64,000 nucleotides of DNA from positions 79,691-143,690 of the forward strand of contig CAZWPT010000045.1 in assembly GCA_964635675.1 (NCBI GenBank). The letters run 5' to 3'. How positions within the stretch are numbered: the stretch's first letter is position 1; each line of letters starts with the position of its first letter. The position numbers and the translations under genes were made by a program. The notes beneath the pieces are model-generated. The model had not been told where the DNA came from. It ran no database searches and worked only from the letters and a program-made list of their open reading frames with translations. Positions 1 through 23,755 of this stretch are shown one piece after another. This DNA comes from an uncultured Nitrososphaerota archaeon. Lineage in GTDB: Archaea > Thermoproteota > EX4484-205 > JAAOZP01.

Positions 1-358
1 TGACATAGCGGTTCTCAGGCAAATAGCCGACTTAATCGCAATCATGTACGCAGGCAAAATAGTTGAGCTGAGTTCTACTGATAACGTGCTATACAACCCC
101 AAGCACCCATACACCACCGGATTGATCAACGCTGTTGTCACTCCTGAACCCGAGGTCAGGAGGCGGGGAATCGTTTCAATAGCTGGCGAGCCGCCGAATC
201 TTTTGAAGCCGCCTAGCGGGTGCCGCTTCCACCCGCGTTGCAAGTTTGCAATGGATTTATGTTCGAAAGAGGAGCCCCCCCTATTAGAGGTAGGAGACAA
301 AACTCTCGTAGCATGCCATCTTTTCTCCTCAAAGAGGGAGGATAAGGTTGCTTCTTGA
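1..358 (+). CDS. ABC transporter ATP-binding protein of the oligopeptide/dipeptide family (OppD/DppD-like), C-terminal fragment. The 5' end lies outside the window.
   Basis: The translation ends with the Opp/Dpp-type C-terminal domain (NPKHPYTTGLI ... CRFHPRC ... C). The reading frame is open to the window edge. The stop overlaps the start of the next ABC ATPase gene. Confidence 0.8.
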   Translation, partial: DIAVLRQIADLIAIMYAGKIVELSSTDNVLYNPKHPYTTGLINAVVTPEPEVRRRGIVSIAGEPPNLLKPPSGCRFHPRCKFAMDLCSKEEPPLLEVGDKTLVACHLFSSKREDKVAS

Positions 359-1139
359 AGTGAACAACCTGACTAAGGTTTTCACCGTCGGACTGCTTAG
401 GAAGAAGGAAATAGTTGCCGTAAAGGACGTGACGTTTCAAGCGACCCCCGGCCAGTTCATATCTCTAGTGGGGGAAAGCGGCTCCGGAAAGACAACGACG
501 GCAAAGATAATTCTGAAGCTGCTTCCACCAACCTCTGGCCAGATACTGTTTGAAGGCAAGGATGTAACCAGGCTTCGGAAGCATGAGGAGCTAAGGGAAT
601 ATTGGCGTAAAGTACATGGTATTTTCCAAGACCCGTATGCCTCCTTCAACCCCCTTCAGAAGGTGGATAGAGTACTCTATCAAGCTTTTGAACTCATGGA
701 CGATAAGGATATCAATAAGGATAGGGTTGTTCGCGAGGCATTAAGGGAGGTCGGCCTTAACTGGGATGAGGTGTTGGGTAAATATCCGCATGAGCTCAGC
801 GGCGGGCAGAGGCAGAGGATCATGGTAGCCAGATGCTACATGATTAAGCCTAGACTCATACTGGCTGACGAGCCTGTCTCGATGATAGATGCTTCCACCA
901 GGAAGAGTGTTCTCCAGCTCTTCACAAACTTAAGGGACGAGTATAAAACTTCAGTCATATTCATAACCCACGACCTAGGCCTAGCCTACTATGTTAGTGA
1001 CGAAATAATCATAATGTATAGGGGCGTGATAGTGGAGAGGGGGCCGCCTGAAGAAATATTGGAGCACGCGCGTTCAGAGTACACTAAAAGACTCAGGTCT
1101 GATGTCCCGCTTTTGTATAAGAAGTGGGAGGGCTTTTAG
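348..1139 (+). CDS. ABC transporter ATP-binding protein (OppF/DppF-like)
   Basis: Walker A is GESGSGKTT, the ABC signature is LSGGQRQR, and Walker B is LILADEP. The start overlaps the preceding ATPase gene, which is typical for a D-F pair. Confidence 0.9.
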   Translation: MLLEVNNLTKVFTVGLLRKKEIVAVKDVTFQATPGQFISLVGESGSGKTTTAKIILKLLPPTSGQILFEGKDVTRLRKHEELREYWRKVHGIFQDPYASFNPLQKVDRVLYQAFELMDDKDINKDRVVREALREVGLNWDEVLGKYPHELSGGQRQRIMVARCYMIKPRLILADEPVSMIDASTRKSVLQLFTNLRDEYKTSVIFITHDLGLAYYVSDEIIIMYRGVIVERGPPEEILEHARSEYTKRLRSDVPLLYKKWEGF

Positions 1140-1202
1140 CCACAGGCCGTGACCAGCCTACCGCAAAGCTTTTAAATTTGACCAAGACAAATCGAGTATA
1201 GG

Positions 1203-2216
1203 TTGAACCCATTACTCCGGTACATTGCCAGGCGCGTTGCATTTCTCTTAACAACCTTCTTTGCCTTCCTGCTTATAATATTCGCCTTGCCGAGAGCAAT
1301 ACCTGGAAACCCGCTCGCCCAGATTCTCTACCGCATGTTTCAACAGGCACAGACAAACCCGGACCTTGTTCAGGCGGTTTACAAACAGCTTATGGAGGAG
1401 TTCGGCATAGGAAAGCCGTTACACGAACAGATGATAGAGTTCTTCACCAGACTGCTTCAGGGAGACCTAGGCACTTCTATAGCATTCTACCCCAGAAAGG
1501 TTGCTGACCTAGTTTTCATCTACCTGCCCTGGTCCCTTGGGCTATTAATACCTGCCACGCTCGTCTCCTGGATCCTTGGTAATCTTCTAGGCGCTTTAGC
1601 AGGCTATAAAAGAAAAACCGCGGTTGACAACGCTTTGTTAACGGTTTTTCTAACGCTTTCCCAGACGCCTTACTATTGGCTTGCGATGATCCTGCTCTAC
1701 GTGTTTGCCGTGACTTTCAGAGTGTTTCCACTCGGCGGAGCCTATAGCAAAGCTCTCATGCCTTCTCTCACCTTAACATTCATAATGAACTTCTTATATC
1801 ATTACGTGCTTCCTTTCTTCTCCATAGTCCTCGCCGCCATAGGTGGCTGGGCCATCGGCATGCGCTCAATGGTGATTTACGAGCTTGGAGCAGATTACGT
1901 GAGCTATGCTGACTCACTGGGCTTATCGGACAGCAAAATGTTAAGATATATTTTTAAAAACTCGATGCTTCCTCAAGTAACTGGACTAGCCTTAAACTTT
2001 GGAACGATTCTCGGCGGCTCTCTAATAACGGAGCTGGTCTTCAGCTATCCGGGCACCGGTTATCTTATATTCAGGTCGCTAAGTATGCTTGACTATCCTA
2101 TGATTCAGGGGACATTCATACTGCTTATATCAACTTTGCTGCTTGCAAACTTCATAGTTGACCTGATATATTCTTATATCGACCCTAGAATAAGGACAGG
2201 CTATGCTACTAGTTGA
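1203..2216 (+). CDS. ABC transporter permease (DppB/OppB-like)
   Basis: The N-terminus (MNPLLRYIARRVAFLL) is typical of DppB. The protein is polytopic and carries an EAA-like loop region. It sits in an operon with the ATPases and the substrate-binding protein. Confidence 0.85.
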   Translation: MNPLLRYIARRVAFLLTTFFAFLLIIFALPRAIPGNPLAQILYRMFQQAQTNPDLVQAVYKQLMEEFGIGKPLHEQMIEFFTRLLQGDLGTSIAFYPRKVADLVFIYLPWSLGLLIPATLVSWILGNLLGALAGYKRKTAVDNALLTVFLTLSQTPYYWLAMILLYVFAVTFRVFPLGGAYSKALMPSLTLTFIMNFLYHYVLPFFSIVLAAIGGWAIGMRSMVIYELGADYVSYADSLGLSDSKMLRYIFKNSMLPQVTGLALNFGTILGGSLITELVFSYPGTGYLIFRSLSMLDYPMIQGTFILLISTLLLANFIVDLIYSYIDPRIRTGYATS

Positions 2217-2330
2217 AAACTCTGTTACCTCTGTTACATGTTGAGGATTGAAAGTACGCGCGTGCTGTTTATATGGATATTTTATAGAAGAAAAAGCTTA
2301 AATAGTGCTTTCCAATATTCTAACCGATGT

Positions 2331-4292
2331 AAAATGAAAGGAAGAATATTCTCATTGTTCCTGCTGTCTTTCATATTGCTTCTGAATTTTCTCCCGTTCA
2401 AACCCATAAAAGCCCAACAAACGTTTCCAAGGGATCAAACGGTCTACATCTCTTCGCCCTGGTCCATACCCGGTTGGAACCCGACGATGAGTGACACGAA
2501 CTGGATGACCCAGATTCAATACCCGACTTTTTACCTATACAATCTTTTCACGGATGAGTGGATTCCGTACGCTGCCTCCGCCTATACGTGGGTTGACAAA
2601 TATACCTTAGAGGTAAAGATAAGGACTGAGGCGAAGTGGTGGGATGGTAAACCTGTGACTGCCGATGATGTAATGTATACTTGGGAGCTGGGAAAGAGGA
2701 TGTTTGTTCCCTTCATAACCCCATTCTGGGATTACTTGGAAGAAGTTGTAGCTATCGACTCTAAAACGGTGCATTTTAGGACGAGTGAGAAGAAACTAAA
2801 CTACTTCCAGTTGCTAGGCGTCCTGCAGCAAATAATTCTGCCAAAGCATAGATGGGAAACGCTGGAAGCAAGATATGGTAAGAAGCTTACGACCGATTTC
2901 AGGGATGATAAGCCAGAGGACATAATTGGGGCGGGTCCATATAGAGCTTACACGGTTTCGGAGTCGAGTTTCTCATACATAAGAGTCGACGACTGGTGGG
3001 GGAAGGACATATTTGGCATTCCAAATCCCAAGTACGTGGTTATATGGATACCCAAGGACAACGTGGCCGCAGCTTTAGCATTTGAACAAGGAGAACTTGA
3101 CTACATGACTCATTTCACTCCCAAGATATGGGAGATGTGGGAAGTTAAGAAGTTGCCAGTAAGGACCTACTACGCGCGTCCTCCGTACTATGTTGGCGGA
3201 GGAGTTGTTTTCCTCTGGATGAACTATAAGACAAAGGGATTGGACAACCCGACGGTTAGAAGGGCCATAGCACACGCGTTGAACATAAGCGAGATGATAG
3301 AGAAGGCCTACTACAACTATGGTTTACAGGCTAAGCCGGTCCCCATAATACACACTAGTGCTGCCGCCATATACATCAATGAATCGCTAATAAGTAACTA
3401 CGGATGGTCTTTTAACATTGAGAAGGCTAAGAAGATACTTGATGACGCCGGCATAAAACCGGGTCCCGATGGCATAAGGAGGCTGCCTGACGGCACAAAG
3501 CTTGGTCCATACACCATACAGGTTCCATATGGTTGGACAGATTGGATGATGATGTGCGATATGATAGCCTCAAACCTCAAGGCAATAGGGATAGAGGTTG
3601 AACCAGTATTTCCAGACTTCTCCGTTTGGTGGCAACGCTTAACCGAAAAGAACTGGGATATGGTCTTAGGATGGGCTGACGCTTCGCCTGGCTATTCTCA
3701 TCCATGGAATGCTTTCAGGTCAACGATGGACCCGAGGCTAAGCCATCCGTCTGGTAATTGGGAGAACTATAACAACCCTGAGGTTACCACTCTTATCGAT
3801 GCGCTTCCCGTAGAGACAGATCCCGCAAAAATAAAGGCTATTTATAATAAGCTGCAGGAAATATGGTTAAAAGACATACCTGGAGTACCGCTCTTCTATG
3901 GTGCATCGTGGTATGAGTATTCCGAGGCCCACTGGGTCGGCTGGGCCAACGAGGAGAACAAGTTCTGGTTCCCTCAGGCCTGGAACTGGCCTTCCAACAT
4001 GCCAATATTCTTCAGAGTAGTGCCGAAGGGTCAAACGCCAAAGGAAGTTCCTTGGGTCGAGACAAAATTTCCAACCAGCAAGATACTTGCAGACCTGGCA
4101 GCTGCTCCAGTCCATGGACTAGTAACCGTGACGAGAACCGTTACGGAAACCGTGGTTCAGACGGTTGCGACCACCGTCACGACCACGCAAACCGTCCCGG
4201 CTTTCGACGTGGTTAGCGCTGGAGGCATAGGAGTAGTAGCCCTAGTAATAGGAGTAGCGGTTGGCTGGCTAGTCGCCTCTAGAAAGAAGTAG
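2331..4292 (+). CDS. ABC transporter substrate-binding protein of family 5 (OppA-like). It has an N-terminal signal peptide, a C-terminal Thr/Val-rich linker and a TM anchor.
   Basis: The ORF in the track runs 2238..4292. The likely true start is the internal ATG at 2331 (MKGRIFSLFLLSFILLL, a signal peptide). A family-5 SBP core follows. The C-terminus (TVTRTVTETVVQTVATTVTTTQTV, then a hydrophobic helix, then SRKK) is the archaeal membrane-anchored SBP type. Confidence 0.85.
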   Translation, partial: KMKGRIFSLFLLSFILLLNFLPFKPIKAQQTFPRDQTVYISSPWSIPGWNPTMSDTNWMTQIQYPTFYLYNLFTDEWIPYAASAYTWVDKYTLEVKIRTEAKWWDGKPVTADDVMYTWELGKRMFVPFITPFWDYLEEVVAIDSKTVHFRTSEKKLNYFQLLGVLQQIILPKHRWETLEARYGKKLTTDFRDDKPEDIIGAGPYRAYTVSESSFSYIRVDDWWGKDIFGIPNPKYVVIWIPKDNVAAALAFEQGELDYMTHFTPKIWEMWEVKKLPVRTYYARPPYYVGGGVVFLWMNYKTKGLDNPTVRRAIAHALNISEMIEKAYYNYGLQAKPVPIIHTSAAAIYINESLISNYGWSFNIEKAKKILDDAGIKPGPDGIRRLPDGTKLGPYTIQVPYGWTDWMMMCDMIASNLKAIGIEVEPVFPDFSVWWQRLTEKNWDMVLGWADASPGYSHPWNAFRSTMDPRLSHPSGNWENYNNPEVTTLIDALPVETDPAKIKAIYNKLQEIWLKDIPGVPLFYGASWYEYSEAHWVGWANEENKFWFPQAWNWPSNMPIFFRVVPKGQTPKEVPWVETKFPTSKILADLAAAPVHGLVTVTRTVTETVVQTVATTVTTTQTVPAFDVVSAGGIGVVALVIGVAVGWLVASRKK

Positions 4293-8614: not shown

Positions 8615-10812
8615 ATGGGGACAGGCTTGGAATGGTGGAGAAAACCCGTTAGAATGATGAGGCTCGACTACTTGGATGCTCTAAGCAGGATGGCTGAATC
8701 AGACATGGATAAGCTGGCCCGGTGGAAAAAGGAGGAGTGGAATATTAACTGCGAATGGGTGATAGGGACCCCGGGGACAGCTCCGGGCCTAGGCTACTTG
8801 ACGACTTTCAACACGCCCAGGTTTGAGAAGTATCCTGCTCTAGGCGACTTCGACCTGGTAAGGGAGTACTTGCCCCGCGCTAGGAAGCACGGCATCAGGG
8901 TCCTAGCGTACCTGAACATGCACTGGTACTCGTACGAGTTTGGACAGAAGCATAGTGATTGGGAGCAGCGTGTCGAGGACGGCAGGAGCTATGGGAGGGT
9001 GCATCCGCTCTACGGCTCCGGGACAACGTTCTGCGTAAACTCGGGGTGGAGGAACTGGGCGTTCGAACTTATAGAGGAGGCTATGAAAACAGGTATTGAC
9101 GGGGTTTTCCTAGATGGACCGGTCGTCTTCCCAGAGTGCTGCTACTGCAAGTCATGCCGGGAAAAGTTTTCAGCAAAGTATGGCGGCGAGGCTCCCAGCT
9201 GGGAAGACTGGTCTAACCCTCTCTGGAGGAAATTCATAGAGTTTAGAGAAGACTCCATGGCGGAGTTTCTCAGGGATGCTCGACGAGCTGTTAAGAAAGT
9301 GAACGAGAAGGGAGTCATATTTCTAAACGGCGGGGCCTGGTGGCCCGGCAGCTGGAGGGTTGCACGCAACATTGAAAAGCTGAGCGAGCATGAGGATTTT
9401 AACGGTGCAGAGGCTTTCTTCCACCCTGGTTCTCAAAACGTGCCTTTAATCTTCTGGGCGCTTGAAGCCAAGCATCTCGCCGCCAAAGGCAAGCCGGCGG
9501 TCGTCTTCAGCCATCACGCGTTGGGCAGCTGGCACTACGTGCCCCTCCCCCGTTTCGAGGCCGAGATCTCGGTTGCGCAAACCGTCTCCTGCGGGGCAAA
9601 CCCCTGGTTCGCCGTCTTCGACTATGCTTTAGACACTAGGCTGGAGGATGCTCTAACCCCTATGAGAAACATTCTAGGCTTTCTGTCAAGAAACGAAGAG
9701 TACTATGTGGACACTGTTTCGAAGGCTGAAGCAGCCCTGCTGCTCTCTTACAAACCTCCACGTTCTACCTTTCTGAACTCAGGGAACTCTACCTTGATCC
9801 GGGGACTGGTGTTGAGAGAGACCTTAAAATAGAGGAGGGCACAGGCCGGAGGACAACAGACCTGAAAGCGAGGAAAGCCGTGTGCGACGAAGTCTACACT
9901 AACTCCATCCTGGGCGCGGCAACCATTTTAAGTCGTAACCATGTTGCGTACGACATAGTTCTAGACAACGCTCTGGTCAACGGTGAGCTGGAGAAGTACT
10001 CTCTACTGGTTCTTCCAAACTCTGCCTGCTTGAGCGATGAACAGGTCCGCGGCATCCAGGGTTTCCTCGGAAAGGGCGGAAGCCTTGTCTGCTCCTTTGA
10101 AACAGGCTGCTACGATGAGTATGGCAACCATAGGCTTGAAAACCCGCTCTGGAGCATTCTCGGCATAGAAGAGTGCGACGGCATGATGCTTCCCAGAGTC
10201 GGGGAGGAATACATGAAGCTCTCTGACTCCGCCGGGGGAATCTTCTCGATCCCCCCTGGCGCGTTGATACCTAGGCCAGTGTACAGTCTCAAAACCCTTC
10301 CGAGAGAAGATGCTGTAGCACCATGCTTCTTCATGAAACCGATAGGTGCCTACTACACTGCTCCCAAGGGTGTTTCAAAATATGCTGCGATCGTTTGCAG
10401 CCGTCACGGCAGGGGTAGAACGGTCTACTTCTCCTCGCTGATTGAAGACTTTTACACCAGGTACAGGATGCCTGACATCTCAAGGGTTTACGCTGACTGC
10501 GCTAGGTTTGCAATAGGCAGGCCGCCGGTTGTGGAGGTTGAAGCTCCGGAGACTGTGCAGTTCGAAGTCAGAGAGCAGAGAAGCACCGGGAGAATACTAG
10601 TCCACCTTGTTAACACCACTGGGGACATGCAGAGGCCGGTTTCAAGCATAACCTGTGTGCACGGCATTAAGGTTAGGACCAGGGGGATCCGGCCTAGGAG
10701 AGTGTTTAAGCTTAGCGATGGAAACATGCTTGCTGGGCGAGAGCTTTCAGACTGTTTCGAATTCACTCTGGATAATCTGATGGTTTACGACGTGATCGTC
10801 TTCGAGTTCTAA
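8615..10812 (+). pseudogene. GH42-family-like glycoside hydrolase (beta-galactosidase or exo-beta-glucosaminidase-like) split by a frameshift into two ORFs, 8615..9832 and 9880..10812
   Basis: The first ORF has TIM-barrel GH features and a Cys cluster (CCYCKSC), the CxCxxC pattern of the GH42 Zn site. The second ORF has the GH42 trimerisation-like domain (AYDIVLDNAL ... YSLLVLPNSACLSDEQ ... GGSLVCSFETG). Frame 1 is open from 9730 and overlaps the frame-2 stop at 9830-9832. The only in-frame start codon for the second part is the GTG at 9880. Confidence 0.55.
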
Positions 10813-11776
10813 ACCCCGAGTGACCAGTATTTCCCCAGTCCTTTTCCTCCTCGCGAACAAGCTTTATCGCCTTCCAGACCAGGCCTTGGCTTTTCCTCAA
10901 AGCCTTCCTAGCCTCCTCCGCCTCAACCCTTGCTAGAGCCATGACTAGAGCAACCTTCAAATCATACCTGCTTCTCCTGTAGATTTCCTCAGCCTCCTCG
11001 CTTGAGATTCCTGCGAAAAAGCGCAGCAGCCTCCTAGCCCGCGACCTAAGCTTCACGCTTAAAGGCTTAATATCTATCATCAGGTTCGTATACACCTTTC
11101 CGATCCTCACCATGGAGACTGTTGAAATCATGTTTAACACCATTTTCTCCGCGGTACCCGCCTTCATCCTTGTCGACCCCGCTATAGCCTCTGGACCCAC
11201 TATGGGCGTTATCACTATGCTAGCGTAGGAGCCGATCTTGGGGTTTGGCACTGTTGCGACAGCTATGGTTTTAGCACCCCTCCGCCTAGCCTCTTTAAGA
11301 GCCCCGATCACGTAGGGCGCCCTGCCTGAGGCGCTCAGCCCTATGACAACATCTCTCTCAGAAACCTTGAGGCGCTTAACATCTTTAACACCAGCCCTCA
11401 TATTGTCCTCAGCCCCTTCAACAGCCTTGAACATGGCTCTCCTCCCGCCAGCTATCAGTGCCTGAACCATGCTGGGGCTTGCGCCGAAGGTAGGTGGGCA
11501 CTCGGCCGCGTCTATAACCCCTATCCTGCCGCTCGTGCCTGCGCCAACATATATTAGTCTACCGCCTTTCTTAAAGGCTTGGGCAACGCTTTCAACAGCC
11601 CTAGCGATCCTCGGTATCTCGAGTTCAACAGCCCTAGCCACCTTCTTATCCTCCCTGTTTATCATCTTCAAAGCCTCAACCACCTGAACCCTGTCTATTC
11701 TAACCGTCCTAGGGTTTCTATGCTCAGTCAACAGTTTTTCAAACTCCGCATCTATTCTCTCCAGTCTTGAAACCAT
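10763..11776 (-). CDS. murQ: N-acetylmuramic acid 6-phosphate etherase-like SIS-domain protein
   Basis: The N-terminus (TEHRNPRTVRID) and the SIS motif (GGRLIYVGAGTSGRIGVIDAAECPPTFG) match the MurQ/GckR family. The gene is divergent from the amino-sugar operon. Confidence 0.75.
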   Translation of the reverse strand: MVSRLERIDAEFEKLLTEHRNPRTVRIDRVQVVEALKMINREDKKVARAVELEIPRIARAVESVAQAFKKGGRLIYVGAGTSGRIGVIDAAECPPTFGASPSMVQALIAGGRRAMFKAVEGAEDNMRAGVKDVKRLKVSERDVVIGLSASGRAPYVIGALKEARRRGAKTIAVATVPNPKIGSYASIVITPIVGPEAIAGSTRMKAGTAEKMVLNMISTVSMVRIGKVYTNLMIDIKPLSVKLRSRARRLLRFFAGISSEEAEEIYRRSRYDLKVALVMALARVEAEEARKALRKSQGLVWKAIKLVREEEKDWGNTGHSGFRTRRRSRRKPSDYPE

Positions 11777-11792
11777 TTTTCTAAGCCGCTAT

Positions 11793-12785
11793 ATGTTAAC
11801 CAGGTGGATGATAAATCTTGGGTTTGAAAAACACTTATATGTCTCCGTTCTAAACAGATTCCTGTTGAACCTGGAGGAAAGGAGTTTTAAAGGCCGGGAT
11901 CTCAGGCCTGTTCTAGAAGTCGTCAACGATGCAATGCCTCTCGACAGGCTTAACGAGGAGTCCTTCAGGTACAGGGTTCTCCTGCAGGAGAATTATGATC
12001 CTGAGCTCTGCATCGTGTCGGAGTCGGAGGGAAGGGTGGTTGGCTTCATCTACTCGGTGACCAGGGGTGAAACCGGCTATATCAACATACTGGCTGTGAA
12101 AAACGGGTTTAGAGGAAGGGGCATCGGGTCAAGAATGCTTGCAACAGTTGAGGAAAAACTCAGGAAGAATGGTTTTAAGAGAATAGTCTTCTCAGGCGGG
12201 CCTAGATACCTTGTTCCCGGGGTTGACGTTAAGGCTTACCCTGGGGCAATAGGCTTCTTCACTAAGAACGGTTACAGTGAATCAAGCAGGGAATCGGTTT
12301 CAATGAGCATGTCGCTCATGGGTTACACAACGCCCGGAGGAGTTTTCGAGCTTGAGAGAAGGCTTGCTGCAGAAGGCTACTCGTTCCAGCAGCTTGACGA
12401 TGAACACGTGTTGGAGCTTCTCCTCTTTCTGAAAGCCAGGTTCCCGTGGTGGTATGAAGACGCTAGAAGAACTATGGAGAAACACCCTAGGTGTCTCGAC
12501 TGGTTTACGCTTGCCCTCCACAATGGGGAGTTAGTCGGCTACTGTCAAATAGGCACCGACGGGCTGATAGAGCATTTCGGCCCTTTTGGGGTTGCTGAGG
12601 AGCATAGGAACAAGGGGGTTGGGACAGTGCTGTTCCACAGGTGTTTGAGGCTAATCCAGTCTCTCGGCGGTAAGAATGCTTGGCTGGCTTGGGGCGGGGG
12701 GAGAAACTACGGTTTCTACGTTAGGAACGGCATGTCTGAGGCCCGGAGGTTCGCGGTTTTCACCAAGAGTCTTGAAAGAGGGTGA
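11793..12785 (+). CDS. tandem-GNAT (two acetyltransferase domains) N-acetyltransferase with an MshD-like architecture
   Basis: Two GNAT cores are present. The first reads GFIYSV ... INILAVKNGFRGRGIGSRML. The second reads GYCQIG ... FGPFGVAEEHRNKGVGTVLF. Confidence 0.75.
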   Translation: MLTRWMINLGFEKHLYVSVLNRFLLNLEERSFKGRDLRPVLEVVNDAMPLDRLNEESFRYRVLLQENYDPELCIVSESEGRVVGFIYSVTRGETGYINILAVKNGFRGRGIGSRMLATVEEKLRKNGFKRIVFSGGPRYLVPGVDVKAYPGAIGFFTKNGYSESSRESVSMSMSLMGYTTPGGVFELERRLAAEGYSFQQLDDEHVLELLLFLKARFPWWYEDARRTMEKHPRCLDWFTLALHNGELVGYCQIGTDGLIEHFGPFGVAEEHRNKGVGTVLFHRCLRLIQSLGGKNAWLAWGGGRNYGFYVRNGMSEARRFAVFTKSLERG

Positions 12786-12791
12786 TCACCG

Positions 12792-13505
12792 TTGGGCATT
12801 AAAATACTCGCGTTCAGCGCCCATACTGGGGATGTTGAAATCACGGCGGGCGGGACAATTCTGCGTAACTTTGAGGAAGGGGGGAGGTGTCTAATACTCC
12901 ACATGTTTAAGCCGTCTGGCAAATGGGCCCGGCCACCGGGGCTCTCCGCGGAGGAGTATGCTGAAATAAGGCTTAAGCAGGCTTTAGAAGCATCCAAGAA
13001 GCTGAATGCTGAAGTCGTCTTCCTAGGGTGTGTCGAGGGCGTCCCCTATGATGCTGAGGAGGTTAAGGTGAAGATGTATAAGGCTATTTTAGAGTTCACG
13101 CCTGACGCGATCCTGATGCACTGGAAGGGAAGCTATCATCCTGATCATCTTGCATGCCACCTTCTCGCCATACAGGCTTTCGAACGCTTCACGGGAGAAC
13201 GGAGGGCGGAGGGGAAACACGGCGAGCCGGTGGAGCTTTACTACCCGGAGAACTGGGAGGACCCGCAGGGCTTCCAGCCGGAGGTTTATGTTGACGTCAG
13301 CAATGTTTTCGAAAAATACTTGGACGTGATTAAGACTTACGATTTTACCTCTGGAAAGTACAGCGGGTTCAACTACGTGGACTACTATTCCTGCTTGAAA
13401 AGAGTCAGGGGACTTGAAGTCGGTTTCAAATACGCGGAAGCCTTCATGACGTTCGGAGACTGGGGTGTTAAGAGGATAAGGAGGAAAAGCCTCCTGGGCG
13501 AGTAG
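12792..13505 (+). CDS. LmbE/PIG-L family N-acetylglucosaminyl deacetylase
   Basis: The N-terminus (ILAFSAHTGDVEITAGGTI) is a variant of the AHPDDE..GGT motif. A later HPDH motif is present. The start codon is TTG. The gene is operon-linked to the GNAT gene and the DUF1343 gene. Confidence 0.8.
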   Translation: MGIKILAFSAHTGDVEITAGGTILRNFEEGGRCLILHMFKPSGKWARPPGLSAEEYAEIRLKQALEASKKLNAEVVFLGCVEGVPYDAEEVKVKMYKAILEFTPDAILMHWKGSYHPDHLACHLLAIQAFERFTGERRAEGKHGEPVELYYPENWEDPQGFQPEVYVDVSNVFEKYLDVIKTYDFTSGKYSGFNYVDYYSCLKRVRGLEVGFKYAEAFMTFGDWGVKRIRRKSLLGE

Positions 13506-13506
13506 T

Positions 13507-14655
13507 TTGGCGAGCAGGGTTAAGCCCGGCCTAGATGTTCTTCTCCAGGGGAAAACACTGCTTGAAAGACTCTCTGGCCTAAGCATTGGGCTGGTTGTAA
13601 ACCACACGTCCGTGACGAGAAGCCTTGAGCCGTCTTACCTACGGCTCTTAGAGAAAGGGATACGGGTGAAAACCCTTTTTACTCCTGAACACGGGCTTTG
13701 GGGAGCCTACGCTGCCGGTGAGCCTGTGGAGTCTGAAAACCCTTCTTTAAACGGGGTTATGGTTCAAAGCCTATACGGCTCTCAGAGGAAGCCGAGTGTT
13801 GAGGCTCTTGAGAATCTAGACCTGCTGGTTTACGATATTCAAGACGTTGGGTGCAGAACCTACACTTACATATCGACTATGCTGAACTGTTTTGAAGAAG
13901 CCTGTAGGAACAGCGTCGGCTTCATGGTTCTTGACAGGCCTAACCCGCTGGGGGGCCTCACCGTTGAGGGGCCGGTTTTGAAGAAGGGCCTGGAATCATT
14001 CGTCGGACCACATTATCTTCCCCTTAGATACGGTATGACTCCTGGTGAACTTTGCCTCCTCTACGCTTACGATAAGGGTTTGAAGCCTCCTCACATGGTT
14101 AGAATGGCCGGGTGGAGCAGAATGATGTACTATCATGAAACAGGCCTCCCCTGGGTATATCCTTCGCCTGCAATACCGACTCCAGTCACCGCGCTGCTTT
14201 ACTCCGGGATGGTTCTGCTTGAAGCAACGAACCTGTCTGAGGGCAGGGGAACGTATAAGCCGTTCGAAGTCTTCGGCGCCCCATGGCTTAAGTCGGCGGA
14301 GCTTGTTTCCACGTTGAAAAGAAGACTGGGTAAGGATTGTCTCGTTATGGAAACAAGGTTTATACCTTCCTCGTCGAAGCATAAGGGGCAGGTTTGCAGA
14401 GGAGCTCACCTGGTGGTTAAAAACCCAAAGGGGGTTAGGCCTTTCAAGGTCGTGGTGCACATTATTCAATCCGTGCTGGAGACTAACCCTGTGGAATTTG
14501 AAGTTGATCATGGAAAGATGGATAGGCTGCTAGGGGACAGTGCGACTAGGAGAAACATCTTAAGCGGGATGAGTGTTGAGGAGATAGTTTTAAAACTGAG
14601 GGACGAGCAAAAAAGGTTTAAAGCCAGAATCAGAAGGATTCTTCTATACGATTGA
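13507..14655 (+). CDS. DUF1343-family protein (NamZ/YbbC-like exo-beta-N-acetylmuramidase family)
   Basis: GLVVNHTSV and LFTPEHGLWG match the conserved N-terminal motifs of DUF1343/NamZ proteins. The gene is tightly packed between the deacetylase and the kinase. Confidence 0.65.
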   Translation: MASRVKPGLDVLLQGKTLLERLSGLSIGLVVNHTSVTRSLEPSYLRLLEKGIRVKTLFTPEHGLWGAYAAGEPVESENPSLNGVMVQSLYGSQRKPSVEALENLDLLVYDIQDVGCRTYTYISTMLNCFEEACRNSVGFMVLDRPNPLGGLTVEGPVLKKGLESFVGPHYLPLRYGMTPGELCLLYAYDKGLKPPHMVRMAGWSRMMYYHETGLPWVYPSPAIPTPVTALLYSGMVLLEATNLSEGRGTYKPFEVFGAPWLKSAELVSTLKRRLGKDCLVMETRFIPSSSKHKGQVCRGAHLVVKNPKGVRPFKVVVHIIQSVLETNPVEFEVDHGKMDRLLGDSATRRNILSGMSVEEIVLKLRDEQKRFKARIRRILLYD

Positions 14656-15620
14656 AACGCATTGTTGTAGCCGGTGTAGACGGGGGTGCTAGCTCAACCA
14701 GATGCCTCGCTGTCGAGACGTGCTCTTGGCGTGTCGCCGCATGTAAATCCGGGCCTTCGAACATTCTTTCAGCAGGCTCGGAGACAACCCTGCTTTCAGT
14801 GAGGAAAGCGTTTAACGGGGCCTTGAGGAAGCTTGAATGCGAAGAAGCTGAAGTCGTTGCACTCTGCCTCTCAGGAGCTTGGACAGCAGGTGGAAGGCTA
14901 GCGAAACTGTTTCGCGGAAGGATTAAAGCTGGTAAAATCCTGATTAAAAGTGATGTTGAAGCTGCTGCAGCAGCCTGCCTAGGGTTTGACAGGCAGGGTA
15001 TTGTAGTCATAGCTGGAACGGGCTCAGTAGTTATAGGTGTTTCAGAAGGATTATTCTTCCGAGCCGGTGGCTGGGGGCATGTCTTTGACGATGAGGGTGG
15101 AGCATACTCCGTTGCAATAGAGGCTTTGAGAGCGGCTTTCCAGTCTTACGATGGGAGAGGGAGGGAGACAAGCCTGGAGGAGGCGGCCCGCCGTTTCTTC
15201 AAAGCCAGGAGCATGGAGGAGCTGGCTGAAAGAGTTCATGAAATGAGGAAGGAGCGTATAGCTCTATTCGCGAAAACAGTTAACGCTGAGGCGGAGAAGG
15301 GGGACTTGGTCGCCAGGAGCATAATTGAGAATGCGGCAGGACCCCTCTCGAGAGGCGTGCTGGCTGTGGCTAGGCGAATGAGGCTGACCCGTGAAGACGG
15401 GTTGAACATTTACTTCTCTGGGGGAATGTTCAATCATCATCGGAACATGCTTGCTAGAAGCATTCGGAAACATCTTTCATCAGAGTACGTGAAGGTTATT
15501 GTTAGGAGGCCTGCGTACCCTCCTGCTGTAGGAGCGTTAATGATAGCTTTTAGAGAAGTTGGCTTAAAACCCCCGGTTGAAGTCTTGAAGAAAGCGAAGA
15601 AGGCTTTAAGAGATGAGTGA
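14652..15620 (+). CDS. BadF/BadG/BcrA/BcrD-type ATPase-family sugar kinase (MurNAc/GlcNAc kinase MurK/NagK-like)
   Basis: The N-terminal phosphate-1 loop is VAGVDGGASSTRC. AGTGS and the ASKHA-fold organisation follow. The start overlaps the preceding gene by 4 nt. Confidence 0.75.
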   Translation: MKRIVVAGVDGGASSTRCLAVETCSWRVAACKSGPSNILSAGSETTLLSVRKAFNGALRKLECEEAEVVALCLSGAWTAGGRLAKLFRGRIKAGKILIKSDVEAAAAACLGFDRQGIVVIAGTGSVVIGVSEGLFFRAGGWGHVFDDEGGAYSVAIEALRAAFQSYDGRGRETSLEEAARRFFKARSMEELAERVHEMRKERIALFAKTVNAEAEKGDLVARSIIENAAGPLSRGVLAVARRMRLTREDGLNIYFSGGMFNHHRNMLARSIRKHLSSEYVKVIVRRPAYPPAVGALMIAFREVGLKPPVEVLKKAKKALRDE

Positions 15621-17266: not shown

Positions 17267-18289
17267 TTAAGCGAGAACTTTAAGCTTCTCGTACGGCACC
17301 TCGTTAATAGGCTTCTCTCCTGAAAAGAATCTTTTTAAATCCTCAACGACTGTGCCGAACAACTGTCTAATCCTTTCATCAGACCCGCCCGCTATATGGG
17401 GTGTTAGAAAAACGTTCTCCAAATCGTACAGGGGACTGTTACTCTCTAAAGGCTCCTGTTCAAAAACATCCAGCGCTGCCCCCGCTAACCGTTTCTCCTT
17501 TAAAGCCTTAACGAGAGCATCCTCATCTATAAGCGAGCCTCTGGACGTGTTTATCAAGAATGCCGTAGGCTTCATGAGTCTAAACTCTTTCTCGCCGATC
17601 ATGTGGCGGGTTTCGCGGATTGAAGCCGCGTGCAGACTTATTACGTCTGAACATGCAAGCAGCTCGTTCAAACCAACCTTTCTCGCCCCGAAAGCAGCAA
17701 CCTGGCTCGGCTCAACGTAAGGGTCGTAAACCATTAGGCTGACCTCAAACGGCTTAAGAAGCTTCACCAGTTCTCTAGCCACTGCGCCAAACCCTACTAT
17801 TCCTACCGTCTTCCCGCTCAAATCATAAGTCGTAAAGCATCTCTGATCCCTGTAAACCCAGTTTCTCCCCCTCATTGCTTCAATATATCTCGGTATCCCC
17901 CTTAAACAGTTAAGGATCATGGCTAGGGCATACTCTGCCACGGGTTTAGCTATTGTTGATGCGGCGTTGACAACCACTATCCCTTTCTTAAAAACCTCGT
18001 CCGTCACATAGGGCTTAACGCTTCCAGCAGCGTGACCTATGATTTTAAGCCTGTTAGCTTTGCTCAACACTTTTTCAGTGAACCTCGGGGAACCCCAGCT
18101 TGTAATGCAGCCATCTATATCAACTATTAGCTCGGAAAGCTCGTCCTCATTAAGATTCCTGTTAAATGGGTTAAAGACGCATTCTGCGAAAGACCTAAGC
18201 TTCTCCTCGTCTTCGGTTCTCGAAATCTTGCTGTAGAGCTCCGCGGGTATTGTAATCAGGACTCTCACCCGCTTACCGCTAAGGCTCAT
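17267..18289 (-). CDS. D-isomer-specific 2-hydroxyacid dehydrogenase (glyoxylate/hydroxypyruvate reductase or PGDH-like)
   Basis: The NAD-binding motif GIVGFGAVARELVKL is present. Catalytic R/E/H are in the expected places (TSRGSLIDE ... HIAG). Confidence 0.85.
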   Translation of the reverse strand: MSLSGKRVRVLITIPAELYSKISRTEDEEKLRSFAECVFNPFNRNLNEDELSELIVDIDGCITSWGSPRFTEKVLSKANRLKIIGHAAGSVKPYVTDEVFKKGIVVVNAASTIAKPVAEYALAMILNCLRGIPRYIEAMRGRNWVYRDQRCFTTYDLSGKTVGIVGFGAVARELVKLLKPFEVSLMVYDPYVEPSQVAAFGARKVGLNELLACSDVISLHAASIRETRHMIGEKEFRLMKPTAFLINTSRGSLIDEDALVKALKEKRLAGAALDVFEQEPLESNSPLYDLENVFLTPHIAGGSDERIRQLFGTVVEDLKRFFSGEKPINEVPYEKLKVLA

Positions 18290-22303: not shown

Positions 22304-23755
22304 ATGGAGGAATGTGGAATAACACCTAAGATGAGAGAGTTAAGCAGTTTGGATAAGCAGAAACAAGTCGCGTTCTGTCTAATCCTTCTGATAATTCTGT
22401 CGCTAACCGGAAACCAACCAATAGCGTCCTATGCTCAGGAATCCGAGTATGAGAGGGTGGCAATCCTGCTGAACAACGTTAAATCAGCCAAGTATCGTTT
22501 CTCAGATGAAGAGGGAACCGTTGGAGCCATAGGTTTCCGAGTCCTTGGAGAGGAGACGGTAAGCGGAGAGAATACTTGGAAGGTTGAATGGGAGTATGAG
22601 GAGGAGGGTGAGACTCCTGAGACAATGCTCCTGTGGATCTCTAAATCGACTGGAAAATGCCTACAGGTTATGATTGACGAGGAAACCTTTACGGGACAAT
22701 ACGCTGAGATGTATGGCAACATAATGCTGTATGTTTGGGTTGCTTGGGTAGGCGCGTGGAGCGAAGCATGGAACTTCACCACAGTATACAGTTACGAGGA
22801 GCTCGGGTATGGAAGGCTGATTTACCTGGGATCCGAAATAGAAACATACGGTCCAAGCCGGCTTCTAGTCTACAAGTACAGGTGGGAAGGGTATGTGAAC
22901 GCACCGGAATCTTACCGTGGTGTTGCAGAATGGTGGTTCGCCCCCGTCAGCTTCGGCACCCTTATAGTTAAAATCTATTTTGAAACTCTCGATACTAAGG
23001 AATGGGATAAGATAGAGCTTTTATCAGTTGATCTGGTTAACCCTCAGCCAAGACCGAACATAGTGATTGACGCCCGGTTTGACAAGACGCAGCTAAAGCC
23101 GAGTGAGGAACTCACTATAACTATCACTGCTTCTAACACGGGGAACGCCATGGGCACTCATAACCTTACCTTAAGTGTAGGCGGAAAAGTCGAGAAAAGT
23201 TGGCTGATTGTCCTGAAACCGGGTGAGAGCAAGAGTCTAAGCCATAAACTATCCTTCGCTGCAGACGGCTCGTATTCAGTGAGGATCGGCGATCAAACAG
23301 TTACTATAACTGTTTCAACAACCCTGCCGGCAAGGTTTGAGGCTAGCGGCCTTAACATAAGCCCGAGTTCAGTTAAGGTCGGCCAGTCGTCGACAATCTC
23401 CGTCACGGTTAAGAACACTGGCGGCGAATCGGGTACGTACGAGGTTACGCTGAAGGTTAACAATCAGGTTGTCGAAACAAAGAGGGGTACCCTGGACTCA
23501 GGCCAGTCAACCACTGTGAGCTTCGCATACACGCCGACTAGCGAGGGAACGTATAATATTGACGTGAACGGCTTAACTGGAAGCCTGACCGTTAGCAAGG
23601 AGGAGGGGGGTGGAGCAGCCCCAGAAACTCCCTGGCTCATGATAATAGGGGCTATTGTAGCAGTGGTCGTCCTAGTCTTGGTGTTGCTGCTTTTAAGGAG
23701 AAAGCCTAAAGCAGAGTTTCCACCACCCCCGCCTCCGCCGCCTCCACCCAGATAA
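22304..23755 (+). CDS. secreted cell-surface protein with CARDB-like domains, a C-terminal TM anchor and a cytoplasmic polyproline tail
   Basis: A signal peptide is present. The likely start is the internal M near 22331. Two CARDB-type repeats are present (ITASNTGNAMGTHNLTLSVGGKV and VTVKNTGGESGTYEVTLKVNNQVV). The C-terminus is a TM helix, then RRKPKAEF, then ten prolines. Confidence 0.7.
   Translation: MEECGITPKMRELSSLDKQKQVAFCLILLIILSLTGNQPIASYAQESEYERVAILLNNVKSAKYRFSDEEGTVGAIGFRVLGEETVSGENTWKVEWEYEEEGETPETMLLWISKSTGKCLQVMIDEETFTGQYAEMYGNIMLYVWVAWVGAWSEAWNFTTVYSYEELGYGRLIYLGSEIETYGPSRLLVYKYRWEGYVNAPESYRGVAEWWFAPVSFGTLIVKIYFETLDTKEWDKIELLSVDLVNPQPRPNIVIDARFDKTQLKPSEELTITITASNTGNAMGTHNLTLSVGGKVEKSWLIVLKPGESKSLSHKLSFAADGSYSVRIGDQTVTITVSTTLPARFEASGLNISPSSVKVGQSSTISVTVKNTGGESGTYEVTLKVNNQVVETKRGTLDSGQSTTVSFAYTPTSEGTYNIDVNGLTGSLTVSKEEGGGAAPETPWLMIIGAIVAVVVLVLVLLLLRRKPKAEFPPPPPPPPPPR

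Follow-up and report, generated by a model that had tools for sequence, protein, structure and literature searches.

A putative peptidoglycan amino-sugar breakdown module of bacterial type in a hot-spring, Brockarchaeota-type archaeon

The window, that is the whole 64-kb stretch of archaeal DNA analysed, was searched for open reading frames, protein families and conserved intergenic motifs around a cluster previously proposed to encode bacterial-type MurNAc/GlcNAc salvage, and the following features were delineated:

8615..10812, plus strand: GHL6/GH42M-like glycoside hydrolase, split into ORFs 8615-9832 and 9880-10812 and converging on murQ
10763..11776, minus strand: MurQ, identified by the TIGR00274 equivalog, solved MurQ structures and the catalytic Glu pair
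11777..11864, no strand: divergent control region with the invariant motifs GATGATAAA (11807-11815) and TTATATG (11835-11841)
11865..12785, plus strand: tandem-GNAT acetyltransferase, GlmA-like, putative GlcN/glucosaminide N-acetyltransferase (longest ORF from 11793)
12792..13505, plus strand: atypical PIG-L/LmbE-fold (CE14-like) metallohydrolase, Pfam PIG-L
13507..14655, plus strand: GH171/NamZ-family exo-beta-N-acetylmuramidase, putative, cytoplasmic type, with two Pfam domains
14652..15620, plus strand: BadF/BadG-type ASKHA sugar kinase, MurK-like, putative MurNAc/GlcNAc 6-kinase, Pfam BcrAD_BadFG
17267..18289, minus strand: D-isomer-specific 2-hydroxyacid dehydrogenase, Pfam 2-Hacid_dh_C (208 bits)

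The five ORFs of the original prediction were recovered at 10763-11776 (minus strand) and 11793-12785, 12792-13505, 13507-14655 and 14652-15620 (plus strand); the gaps between the latter four are 6, 1 and -4 nt, as had been described, and the motifs GLVVNHTSV, LFTPEHG and VAGVDGGASSTRC were all found in the translations. Although the coordinates of the GNAT ORF hold, translation probably begins at TTG 11865 and not at the ATG of 11793, because relatives carry frame-breaking indels upstream of 11865 and, in the related locus L082, an ATG sits where the TTG of the window aligns. The two motifs of the divergent control region are the same in 8 archaeal loci, even though L082 and L173, which are distant, are among these; in L002, L004 and L173 the stretch between the motifs has indels of lengths not divisible by three. 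The motifs are probably TATA-type promoter elements, serving murQ and the plus-strand operon.

The proposed five-gene extent overlooked a sixth module member, the GHL6 glycosidase (Pfam GHL6 55.3 bits, Glyco_hydro_42M 31.9 bits). In the window this single gene changes frame near 9751-9772, as seen by alignment with an intact 728-aa orthologue (L082:5124-7310), of which residues 1-380 align in one frame and residues 376-728 in another; in L004-L006 one uninterrupted ORF encodes it, with a length of 732-760 aa. It still adjoins murQ in L082-84 despite differing outer flanks, was not found in L173 and is almost deleted in L002. The best solved relative is 6tvk, labelled alpha-L-fucosidase (E 1e-8), and matches to GH42 structures are weak.

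The MurQ protein scores 364.9 bits on the NCBIfam equivalog TIGR00274, where 302 bits are required. It matches solved MurQ structures over its whole length, 4s12 at E 6e-88 and 1nri/4lzj at E 2e-83. The positions of E. coli Glu83 and Glu114, which we take to be the catalytic residues, are occupied by E92 and E123, neither of which varies among 9 sequences. The original assignment, for which a check of these residues had been proposed, stands: the protein keeps both residues and scores as a MurQ equivalog and not as a generic SIS isomerase. The C-terminus carries a basic tail of ~30 aa. The dehydrogenase at 17267..18289, which misses all NCBIfam cutoffs, is a possible sink for MurQ-released D-lactate and is listed as a tentative associate only; a 37%-identical homologue lies ~2.3 kb from the module in L088, and none was found near the module in L082 or L173.

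The kinase scores 126.9 bits on Pfam BcrAD_BadFG and its top solved relative is 8zo3, an 'N-acetylmuramic acid/N-acetylglucosamine kinase' (E 6.5e-39), with the S. tokodaii hexokinase 2e2n next in rank, in agreement with the BadF/BadG-type call. Its sole NCBIfam match, NagK_SO3507, reaches just 89 bits where 370 are required. Residues S100-D101 align with T94-D95 of TfMurK, where homologous sugar kinases have Asn. The DUF1343/NamZ call was likewise borne out when the proposed profile search was run, NamZ_N scoring 232.6 bits and NamZ_C 139.8 bits; the best solved relative is 4k05 (E 2e-62). Of 121 homologues, 118 share E61 of the PEHG motif and all 121 share R247 of GRGT; these residues correspond by offset to Glu92 and Arg279 of BsNamZ. 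A hydrophobic N-terminal leader was found in none of the 22 archaeal-tier NamZ sequences, compared with 55 of the 99 others.

Two Acetyltransf_1 stretches support the tandem-GNAT call, which had however missed a likeness to GlmA: among solved structures the best matches are the tandem GNAT GlmA itself (5kf1), at E 1.8e-8 and with both halves covered by the alignment, and 4zm6, in which a GlcN N-acetyltransferase region forms part of a fungal GH3 enzyme. The literature confirms the identity of both proteins (PMC10936415, PMC4680927), and these are the two GlcN N-acetyltransferases that have been characterised structurally. For the adjacent 'deacetylase' the family assignment was upheld (Pfam PIG-L 65.6 bits, cutoff 28.2), but the reaction label was not. 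Every NCBIfam cutoff was missed (BshB1 64 versus 182.5 bits), and in all 37 members of the subfamily A-H-x-G-D-x-E, with Ala in place of Gly in one exception (P0150), replaces the H-P/S-D-D of solved relatives, while the H-x-D-H motif is retained. Judged from this alignment, the protein belongs to an atypical subfamily that lacks the canonical general-base Asp, so that 'deacetylase' is a statement of family only. The nearest folds to its AlphaFold model (pLDDT 92.7) are Pyrococcus diacetylchitobiose deacetylases, GalB hydratase, BC1534, TT1542 and BshB, all with a TM score of ~0.72-0.76.

Conservation of the cluster was assessed in the neighbourhood survey that had been proposed. The five-gene core is held in about ten related archaeal loci (L002, L004, L005, L006, L082-84, L090, L091 and L173) and in three neighbourhoods, namely those of the window type, L082 and L173; linkage therefore persists in related genomes with differing flanks, and this recurrence of the same block rules out chance association. 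The five core genes are under purifying selection, with dN/dS values of 0.08-0.16, like neighbouring genes (murQ 0.08-0.10, GNAT 0.10-0.13, PIG-L 0.09-0.14). Relatives at 77-93% identity are all archaea-labelled MAGs, including Ca. Brockarchaeota DRTY-6.bins.80, and other genes of the window encode AlaX-M, which passes its equivalog cutoff, a DNA polymerase of family B and a GT2 glycosyltransferase whose transmembrane domain is of the GtrA/DPMS type; the host is a hot-spring, Brockarchaeota-type (Thermoproteota) archaeon. A further archaeal locus, L088, which bears Trm5/Taw2 and MtrH, combines GNAT, PIG-L, MurQ and AnmK (479 bits, equivalog cutoff 387) with NamZ and the kinase, and minimal kinase-MurQ pairs occur in L172 (labelled Brockarchaeota) and L171 (labelled Thermoproteota). 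MurQ-based modules have probably been assembled in archaea more than once.

The composition GNAT/PIG-L/NamZ/kinase/MurQ is not specific to archaea. A Clostridiales locus (L061) carries a GntR regulator, ABC transporter genes, GNAT, PIG-L, MurQ, NamZ, GH3 and kinase genes, and an Aerophobetes locus (L086) carries ABC transporter genes, NamZ, a PBP4B-like gene, GNAT, PIG-L, kinase and a second NamZ. A search with the PIG-L profile also gave 40 metagenome loci measuring 8 kb or more, and the partner genes counted in these were GNAT (33/40), NamZ (15/40), PBP4B/AmiE-like genes (10/40), an ABC binding protein (9/40) and, more rarely, kinase (8/40), MurQ (6/40) and AnmK (2/40). A tandem-GNAT gene lies directly upstream of the PIG-L gene in 33 of the 40, and the two form a fixed submodule that accompanies NamZ, kinase, MurQ and AnmK in bacterial loci such as L086 and L061 and recurs on numerous unlabelled contigs from metagenomes, alongside GntR regulators, ABC importers and PBP4B-like genes. 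The pair came with the module. The earlier argument, which drew on the Thermococcus chitin pathway to explain the deacetylase step as habitual in archaea, is not needed, whereas the view of an archaeal cluster of bacterial MurNAc/GlcNAc salvage enzymes was kept. The same gene sets beside ABC importers in bacterial loci suggest that the module was probably acquired from bacteria.

The likely function of this bacterial-type module is to break down peptidoglycan amino sugars in the cytoplasm, and, as the host presumably makes no murein, it would serve to scavenge bacterial wall debris and not to recycle an own wall. With enzyme specificities predicted from homology and gene context, a transporter outside the module would import soluble peptide-free fragments, e.g. 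MurNAc-beta-1,4-GlcNAc, from which leaderless NamZ would take off the non-reducing MurNAc; the MurK-like kinase would phosphorylate MurNAc and GlcNAc at O6, and MurQ would convert MurNAc-6P to GlcNAc-6P and D-lactate. Free or terminal GlcN of de-N-acetylated peptidoglycan would be re-N-acetylated by the GlmA-like GNAT, giving a substrate for the remaining enzymes; the atypical PIG-L protein may catalyse amide hydrolysis or a related reaction on one pathway sugar, and GHL6, intact in relatives, would probably cut the complementary GlcNAc/GlcN-beta-1,4-MurNAc bond in place of NagZ. Several observations count against this reading: the kinase is a distant relative of its characterised namesakes, as is the GNAT of GlmA; characterised GH171 enzymes are secreted, unlike the leaderless NamZ; GHL6 is disrupted in the window genome; and PIG-L, besides lacking the canonical general base, is found together with NagA in four loci. 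A transporter, a MurNAc-L-Ala amidase, a lysozyme, NagZ and NagA/NagB are all missing from the module, and none is evident elsewhere in the 64-kb window.

Three of these absences (amidase, lysozyme, MurNAc transporter) would also suit a different substrate, with NamZ- and MurQ-family proteins of shifted specificity acting on chitin/chitosan oligomers, on GlcNAc/GlcN generally or on another hexosamine of microbial exopolymers, 3-O-lactyl or acidic. PIG-L enzymes and GNATs of the GlmA type have GlcN and GlcNAc as substrates, some members of the kinase family are GlcNAc kinases or broad hexokinases, GH171 is functionally somewhat diverse, and related L085-type contigs carry GNAT and PIG-L near GH18 and GH116 genes without MurQ or NamZ, which fits a broader GlcN/GlcNAc role of the pair. 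We nevertheless regard a substrate of this kind as unlikely: MurQ passes its equivalog cutoff with both catalytic glutamates, and we know of no substrate of the family other than MurNAc-6P; every characterised GH171 enzyme is a muramidase; PBP4B/AmiE-like cell-wall enzymes are among the partners in bacterial loci; and AnmK stands beside MurQ in archaeal L088, peptidoglycan being, to our knowledge, the only source of 1,6-anhydro-MurNAc. It is highly improbable that the module recycles or salvages an endogenous envelope polymer with a MurNAc-like sugar, in the way that Tannerella builds its own wall from scavenged MurNAc. Brockarchaeota envelopes may contain such a sugar, PMT_2 and the GT2 gene lie beside the cluster with a DegT aminotransferase further off, and GT2/GT4 genes adjoin the kinase-MurQ pairs of L171 and L172. 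However, MurQ acts in catabolism, breaking up the lactyl ether, murA/murB, amgK/murU and other anabolic genes were found neither in the window nor in the fetched loci, and we know of no archaeon containing muramic acid; the module flanks differ among L082, L173 and the window, so the association with glycosylation genes is not maintained.

A decaying relic of past transfer, no longer working in the host, is very unlikely. The frameshifted GHL6, its near loss in L002 and the lack of nearby transporter and downstream enzymes would be expected of one, but the GHL6 frameshift could be an assembly error, and the five core genes are intact in each locus examined, with low dN/dS, preserved tight or overlapping spacing and invariant intergenic motifs. 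Mis-assembly or mis-binning of bacterial DNA into archaeal MAGs is barely credible, even though the nearest characterised relatives of every cluster protein are bacterial and the GC content of the cluster genes (0.50-0.54) is slightly above the window mean (0.477). These GC values are inside the range of the remaining window genes, the closest bacterial sequences reach just ~44-54% identity, identical junctions with archaeal flanks occur in several MAGs of differing isolate and assembly names, AlaX-M and the family-B polymerase share the window, and close MurQ homologues lie on archaeal-labelled contigs of 340-858 kb, those labelled Thermoproteota reaching 858 kb.

The enzymes belong to known families; in the literature searched there was no report or description of such a pathway in archaea for N-acetylmuramic acid (MurNAc), a bacterial cell-wall sugar, in keeping with the original remark that no characterised archaeal pathway of this composition was known. 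A precedent is offered by anaerobic ciliates, hosts also without murein, which bear laterally acquired NamZ, anmK, murQ, pbp4b and a nagB-PIG-L fusion (PMC13198582). If the scavenging reading is true, it suggests an archaeon that feeds on bacterial wall debris.

An ORF listing of the window placed the five core genes at the coordinates of the original prediction and reproduced the gaps of 6, 1 and -4 nt between the plus-strand genes, and the peptide motifs quoted in that prediction were found in the translations. The genes are listed below together with one neighbouring gene that is discussed further on.

Genes of the module core and one neighbouring gene (window positions)
10763-11776, minus strand: MurQ (ORF call, Pfam and NCBIfam)
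11793-12785 (longest ORF), plus strand: tandem GNAT (ORF call, Pfam)
12792-13505, plus strand: PIG-L (ORF call, Pfam)
13507-14655, plus strand: NamZ, GH171 (ORF call, Pfam)
14652-15620, plus strand: BadF/BadG-type kinase (ORF call, Pfam)
17267-18289: D-isomer-specific 2-hydroxyacid dehydrogenase, about 1.6 kb from the module

The predicted linkage of the five genes extends to related archaeal loci, including loci with other flanks (L082-84 and L173). In L082-84, whose NamZ is 68% identical to that of the window, the outer flanks are wholly unlike those of the window and the order GHL6-murQ-GNAT-PIG-L-NamZ-kinase is kept, while in L173 (NamZ 66%) the five-gene core is retained in a third type of neighbourhood. 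The GHL6/GH42M glycosidase gene, which in L082 is intact (728 aa) and convergent with murQ, is the sixth member of the block, since intact copies still adjoin murQ in L082-84 despite the unlike outer flanks. In the window this gene is divided between two ORFs (8615-9832 and 9880-10812); residues 1-380 of the L082 protein match one frame and residues 376-728 another, which places a frameshift at approximately 9751-9772 that represents either true gene decay or an assembly error. L004-L006 each have it as one uninterrupted ORF (the intact copies in these loci and in L082 span 728-760 aa), whereas L002 has nearly lost it, retaining a 45-aa remnant, and L173 lacks it. No NCBIfam model matched GHL6, which weakly resembles the solved structure 6tvk (labelled alpha-L-fucosidase) and GH42 enzymes. 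The MurQ encoded on the opposite strand ends in a basic extension of about 30 aa (RTRRRSRRKPSDYPE), which is absent from bacterial MurQs and is coded inside a 50-nt convergent overlap with the GHL6 3' end (10763-10812), an arrangement also seen in L082.

Promoters were sought through intergenic conservation because the sigma-70 scan (5 sites in the window versus 3.2 expected) does not cover archaeal promoters; a terminator scan returned 0 sites versus 6.8 expected. In the spacer between murQ and the GNAT gene (11777-11864), the motifs GATGATAAA (11807-11815) and TTATATG (11835-11841) do not vary among eight archaeal loci and are probably TATA-type promoter elements, judging from this conservation. 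As indels not divisible by three fall between the two motifs, and as L082 has an ATG at the position aligned with an in-frame TTG of the window at 11865, the GNAT start is probably this TTG rather than the ATG at 11793. A start at 11865 would sit approximately 28 nt past the TATA-like box and would make the divergent spacer about 88 nt long, not 16; for both genes, leaderless starts some 26-28 nt beyond the two conserved motifs are proposed. The dN/dS values of all five genes (0.08-0.16 against L002, L004, L006 and L082) are on par with those of neighbouring genes, and on this evidence the five-gene core is judged functional in the window lineage.

All five family assignments of the original prediction were borne out by profile searches. 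The proposed MurNAc-6P etherase passed the MurQ equivalog TIGR00274 (364.9 bits, cutoff 302) as well as NF003915 (400.3 bits, cutoff 168), and aligned end to end over about 290 residues with solved MurQs (4s12, E 6e-88; 1nri/4lzj, E 2e-83). Alignment with E. coli K-12 MurQ (L089) equated Glu83 (SECPP) and Glu114 (EGAED), which Hadi et al. reportedly identified as catalytic in 2008, with E92 and E123 of the window protein, and both residues are invariant among 9 archaeal and bacterial sequences. The protein called DUF1343 (13507-14655) scored on PF07075 (NamZ_N, 232.6 bits) and PF20732 (NamZ_C, 139.8 bits), with each profile wholly covered, and NCBIfam held no matching model; its closest solved relative is 4k05 (E 2e-62), followed by 4jja (E 3e-39). 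The putative catalytic Glu92 and the cleft Arg279 of the B. subtilis enzyme BsNamZ (PMC8054146) were equated, through offsets of 31 and 32 and the motif rather than by direct alignment, with E61 (PEHG) and R247 (GRGT), present in 118 and 121 of 121 homologues, respectively. A hydrophobic N-terminal leader was found in 0 of 22 archaeal-tier NamZ proteins versus 55 of 99 other homologues, and in all 22 the domain begins 19-29 residues past the Met. The archaeal proteins are in this respect unlike the characterised GH171 enzymes (BsNamZ, TfNamZ1/2), which are secreted and act on peptide-free glycans, and the missing leader suggests that archaeal NamZ should work on imported fragments.

The kinase matched PF01869 (BcrAD_BadFG) with 126.9 bits, in line with the BadF/BadG call, and scored 89 bits against NCBIfam NagK_SO3507, for which the cutoff is 370. 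Its top PDB match is 8zo3 (E 6.5e-39), deposited as 'N-acetylmuramic acid/N-acetylglucosamine kinase', with S. tokodaii hexokinase (1e-25) and human NagK (2.5e-13) ranking lower. In the MurNAc kinase of Tannerella forsythia (TfMurK, T94-D95), a small residue before the catalytic Asp, in place of the Asn of homologous sugar kinases, gives room for the lactyl ether (PMC10465942). The window kinase has S100-D101 at this position and cluster-linked kinases elsewhere have T, G or H at the position of S100, but 8zo3 itself has N-D, and the TfMurK authors state that sequence analysis cannot identify MurNAc binding (PMC10465942). The acetyltransferase contains two Acetyltransf_1 stretches, as expected of a tandem GNAT, and its top PDB match is 5kf1 (GlmA, 328 aa), to which both halves aligned, followed by 4zm6; the two GlcN N-acetyltransferases of characterised structure thus rank first. 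Given a tandem architecture of about 325 aa like that of GlmA and a low similarity (E 1.8e-8), it is described here as a putative GlmA-like enzyme.

Membership of the PIG-L/LmbE family is likewise clear (PF02585, 65.6 bits, cutoff 28.2). The motif of its subfamily (37 archaeal and bacterial sequences) is A-H-x-G-D-x-E, where TT1542 has HPDD and BshB1 HSDD. The position of the general base, the first Asp of H-P-D-D (MshB Asp15), is Gly in 36 of the 37 members and Ala in the other, and the protein was therefore not filed as a bona fide deacetylase. Residues H11, D14, H116, D118 and H119 do not vary among 28 subfamily sequences; by comparison with MshB, the metal ligands are presumably the His and second Asp of H-P-D-D and the His of H-x-D-H. 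An AlphaFold model (pLDDT 92.7) matched 42 solved PIG-L chains at a Foldseek E-value of 1.5e-8 or lower, with about equal fold matches (TM 0.72-0.76) to Pyrococcus diacetylchitobiose deacetylases, GalB hydratase, BC1534, TT1542 and BshB. Given the replaced general-base Asp and these near-equal matches, the protein is treated as a family member and putative hydrolase only, and its reaction may differ from deacetylation. Throughout the loci compared (window 12792-13505; L061, L085, L086, L088 and L090-L169) the subfamily gene lies nearly always directly downstream of a tandem GNAT gene. The subfamily is widespread in metagenomes, and no characterised member was found.

Two more specific roles for this protein were weighed. 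The diacetylchitobiose deacetylase (Dac) of the Thermococcus/Pyrococcus chitin pathway, which acts with an exo-beta-D-glucosaminidase, is also a PIG-L-fold enzyme and is nominally the top fold match (TM 0.72-0.75), and the pairing of a deacetylase with a GH42-like glycosidase could hold for PIG-L and GHL6. A Dac-like role was nevertheless set aside, as the Dac match, being indistinguishable from those to GalB, BC1534, TT1542 and BshB, does not decide the matter, identity to Dac is 21-23%, and the general-base Asp is missing; moreover, the window subfamily occurs in bacteria too and is linked to a GNAT instead of a glucosaminidase. Replacement of NagA by PIG-L is weakened by four loci (L147, L148, L161 and L162) in which NagA shares the locus with the GNAT + PIG-L pair, making PIG-L unlikely to be a mere NagA substitute, although a nagB-PIG-L fusion in anaerobic ciliates keeps the idea alive (PMC13198582).

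Taken together as a putative pathway, peptide-free fragments would be imported and NamZ would free MurNAc from them, the kinase would yield MurNAc-6P and GlcNAc-6P, and MurQ would convert MurNAc-6P into GlcNAc-6P and D-lactate; GNAT would re-acetylate GlcN, and PIG-L and GHL6 would contribute accessory steps. Among the Pfam-scanned ORFs of the 64-kb window, no transporter, amidase, NagZ or NagA/NagB gene lies in the module or was evident elsewhere, apart from two transporters off the module, a Dpp/Opp-type ABC system (348-4292) and an MFS_2 sugar transporter (57801-59111). These two are candidate importers of wall fragments, neither of them beside the module. The Dpp/Opp-type system is partial (ATPase, permease and family-5 binding protein), as it runs off the window start. 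None of the archaeal loci compared has an uptake system (PTS MurP, MurT, AmpG or ABC) within the module, whereas the bacterial counterparts have ABC importers. One candidate for oxidising the D-lactate from MurQ is the 2-hydroxyacid dehydrogenase at 17267-18289, and a homologue 37% identical to it is encoded about 2.3 kb from the module of another archaeal locus, L088 (4854-5891); this link was set aside because the enzyme is generic, falls below all NCBIfam cutoffs and does not accompany the module in L082 or L173. The window also encodes large Ig-like-domain proteins (43917-47273 and 22304-23755), with He_PIG in a 1118-aa protein and CARDB in another, which may be surface proteins.

Contamination or mis-binning of a bacterial fragment was rejected on the following grounds. 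The closest NamZ proteins in species-representative genomes come from six archaea-labelled MAGs (77-93% identity), including Candidatus Brockarchaeota DRTY-6.bins.80, with bacterial NamZ next at 44% identity or less; contigs as long as 858 kb with a Thermoproteota label carry near relatives of MurQ (about 91% identity); the window also codes for AlaX-M, which passed its NCBIfam equivalog, for a family-B DNA polymerase, for a PMT_2 glycosyltransferase and for a GT2 enzyme that includes a GtrA/DPMS-type transmembrane domain; and synteny with those MAGs extends to either side of the cluster. No RNA gene came out of the tRNA and Rfam scans, and hence no taxonomic marker of this kind. The host order, GTDB EX4484-205, has been equated with Brockarchaeota and described as one of the main CAZyme-bearing groups of circumneutral springs (PMC11094006). 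Composition gave no clear signal of recent transfer, the cluster GC of 0.50-0.54 lying inside the range of other window genes, and no single coherent bacterial donor emerged from the nearest labelled relatives (Clostridia for MurQ, Acidimicrobiia and Acidobacteriota for NamZ, Aerophobetes for PIG-L).

Other archaeal versions differ in composition. Locus L088, on a contig that looks archaeal from its Trm5/Taw2-type and MtrH genes, carries GNAT, PIG-L, MurQ and AnmK on one strand and NamZ and the kinase on the other; its AnmK (11086-12234), beside MurQ, passed an NCBIfam equivalog with 479 bits (cutoff 387). MurQ of this locus is 60% identical to that of the window, while the other four proteins, at 29-41%, are no closer than bacterial ones, and its NamZ has closer relatives among other, unlabelled sequences (55%) than in the window clade, which points to a separate assembly of the L088 module. 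The substrate of AnmK, 1,6-anhydro-MurNAc, to our knowledge arises only from peptidoglycan, and the presence of AnmK therefore strengthens the peptidoglycan reading; no report of AnmK in archaea was found in the literature. A minimal kinase-MurQ pair was found in L171 (labelled Thermoproteota) and L172 (labelled Brockarchaeota), while L081 has NamZ by itself. Directly upstream of this solitary NamZ (L081 8701-11155) is a RuBisCO large-subunit gene, and another is situated about 6 kb from a kinase-MurQ pair (L171 3401-5376 and 11125-12366), which may be coincidence.

The closest counterparts in gene content, and partly in order, are bacterial GNAT/PIG-L/NamZ/kinase loci. A Clostridiales UBA4706 locus (L061) encodes GntR, an ABC binding protein, two permeases, GNAT, PIG-L, MurQ, an esterase, an ORF beside it without assignment, NamZ, GH3 and a kinase of BadF/G type, while in one from Ca. 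Aerophobetes Ae_b3a (L086) two sets of ABC transporter genes are accompanied by NamZ, a PBP4B-like gene, GNAT, PIG-L, the kinase and another NamZ. The composition of the cluster is, on this evidence, not peculiar to archaea. Both groups share the same atypical H-x-G-D PIG-L directly downstream of the tandem GNAT, at protein identities of 22-48%; ABC importers, GntR, GH3 NagZ and PBP4B/AmiE-like genes occur in the bacterial loci alone, and GHL6 is added in the archaeal module. A search of metagenomes with a PIG-L subfamily profile gave 80 loci, and genes were counted on the 40 loci of at least 8 kb: GNAT was present in 33, NamZ in 15, PBP4B/AmiE-like genes in 10, ABC binding protein and permease genes in 9, the kinase in 8, GntR in 7, MurQ in 6, NagA in 4 (E. 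coli NagA probes), AnmK and GH3 in 2 each, and GHL6 in 1, a window-clade locus; E. coli NagB probes matched 0 of the 40. GNAT and PIG-L thus form a fixed two-gene unit within cell-wall-sugar loci. No archaeal-specific rationale is required for this pair in the archaeal module, and the idea of an archaeal habit of deacetylation, drawn from the Thermococcus chitin pathway, was dropped. In contigs of the L085 type, among them L092-L098, the pair is on its own; L085 has genes for GH18 and GH116 close to it, and an RNase H-like protein at an L085-type locus is 45% identical to that of the window. Beta-lactamase-fold proteins with PBP4B as their best NCBIfam match adjoin NamZ and GNAT/PIG-L in bacterial-type loci (L086 4510-5646; L100, L102, L103, L107, L111-L113, L119, L134, L135, L142 and L152), just as E. 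coli yfeW (PBP4B) adjoins murQ-murP; such a gene is absent from the archaeal module. No experimental work on these bacterial loci was found in the literature.

Among known systems, the B. subtilis murQ-murR-murP-amiE-nagZ-namZ(ybbC) operon likewise encodes MurQ together with a GH171 NamZ and follows the same logic, in which MurNAc is obtained from peptide-free fragments and MurNAc-6P is then converted to GlcNAc-6P. In B. subtilis MurNAc is phosphorylated on PTS uptake via MurP, whereas the archaeal module has a cytoplasmic BadF/G kinase and no PTS gene, lacks AmiE, NagZ and MurR, encodes a leaderless rather than a secreted NamZ, and has in addition the tandem GNAT, the atypical PIG-L and GHL6; the archaeal host is presumably without murein and would scavenge where B. 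subtilis recycles. The C. acetobutylicum recovery pathway (MurK, GlmA and MurQ; 8zo3 is presumably the enzyme of this organism) comprises the same three enzyme types, to which the archaeal module adds NamZ, PIG-L and GHL6, and the GlmA rationale, re-acetylation of GlcN from de-N-acetylated peptidoglycan before further processing, would carry over; the GNAT similarity is low. Tannerella forsythia (MurT-MurK-MurQ, NamZ1/NamZ2 and AmpG), which has no MurNAc synthesis of its own, scavenges the sugar from the peptidoglycan of other bacteria via NamZ-type enzymes, a MurNAc kinase and MurQ, and the L171/L172 pair resembles its MurK-MurQ; however, it uses MurNAc for its own wall and the archaeon presumably as a nutrient only, its NamZs are periplasmic, and TfMurK is not among the sequence matches of the window kinase. 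A precedent in another murein-less lineage is provided by a 2026 paper on anaerobic ciliates, which have laterally acquired NamZ, anmK, murQ, pbp4b and a PIG-L fused to nagB, viewed by the authors as serving peptidoglycan degradation in detrital food webs (PMC13198582). The ciliates, likened here by description and not by sequence, differ in being eukaryotic hosts with dispersed genes and in the fusion of PIG-L to NagB.

As had been supposed, no characterised archaeal pathway of such composition came to light, the literature searched on MurQ, AnmK and MurNAc in archaea giving no report. The text of the Brockarchaeota description mentions neither peptidoglycan, muramic acid nor MurQ, with muramic acid appearing in its supplements in generic CE4 definitions only, and the founding NamZ paper covers bacterial phyla only. 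The genes are not hidden, since NCBI automatic annotation already names the archaeal proteins of the module. The module varies a bacterial system that is already known, in a host domain new to it and with two uncharacterised components. We regard as possible, though doubtful, the fuller reading that Brockarchaeota-type and related Thermoproteota truly consume peptidoglycan sugars in geothermal sediments, that MurQ modules were assembled at least three times (the five-/six-gene module, the AnmK version and the minimal kinase-MurQ pair) and that the GNAT + PIG-L step is novel. Such a step in the processing of cell-wall amino sugars, by the tandem GNAT and the H-x-G-D PIG-L, a pair also common in uncultured bacteria, could act on MurNAc, GlcN or disaccharides of these, either by N-acyl editing or by a non-deacetylation reaction.

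The advance is incremental and not conceptual, as all components belong to known families and catabolic gene transfer into such archaea is expected. The survey singles out a widespread uncharacterised pair in bacterial cell-wall-sugar loci, the tandem GNAT and the atypical PIG-L. Peptidoglycan is a large part of microbial necromass, and MurNAc is held to be a bacterial marker. If the catabolism is true, archaea would count among the organisms that feed on debris of bacterial walls in hot springs and sediments, the carbohydrate-degrading lifestyle described for Brockarchaeota would widen to a bacterial polymer, and the module would be a clear case of a multi-gene catabolic pathway moved from bacteria to archaea and held under selection.
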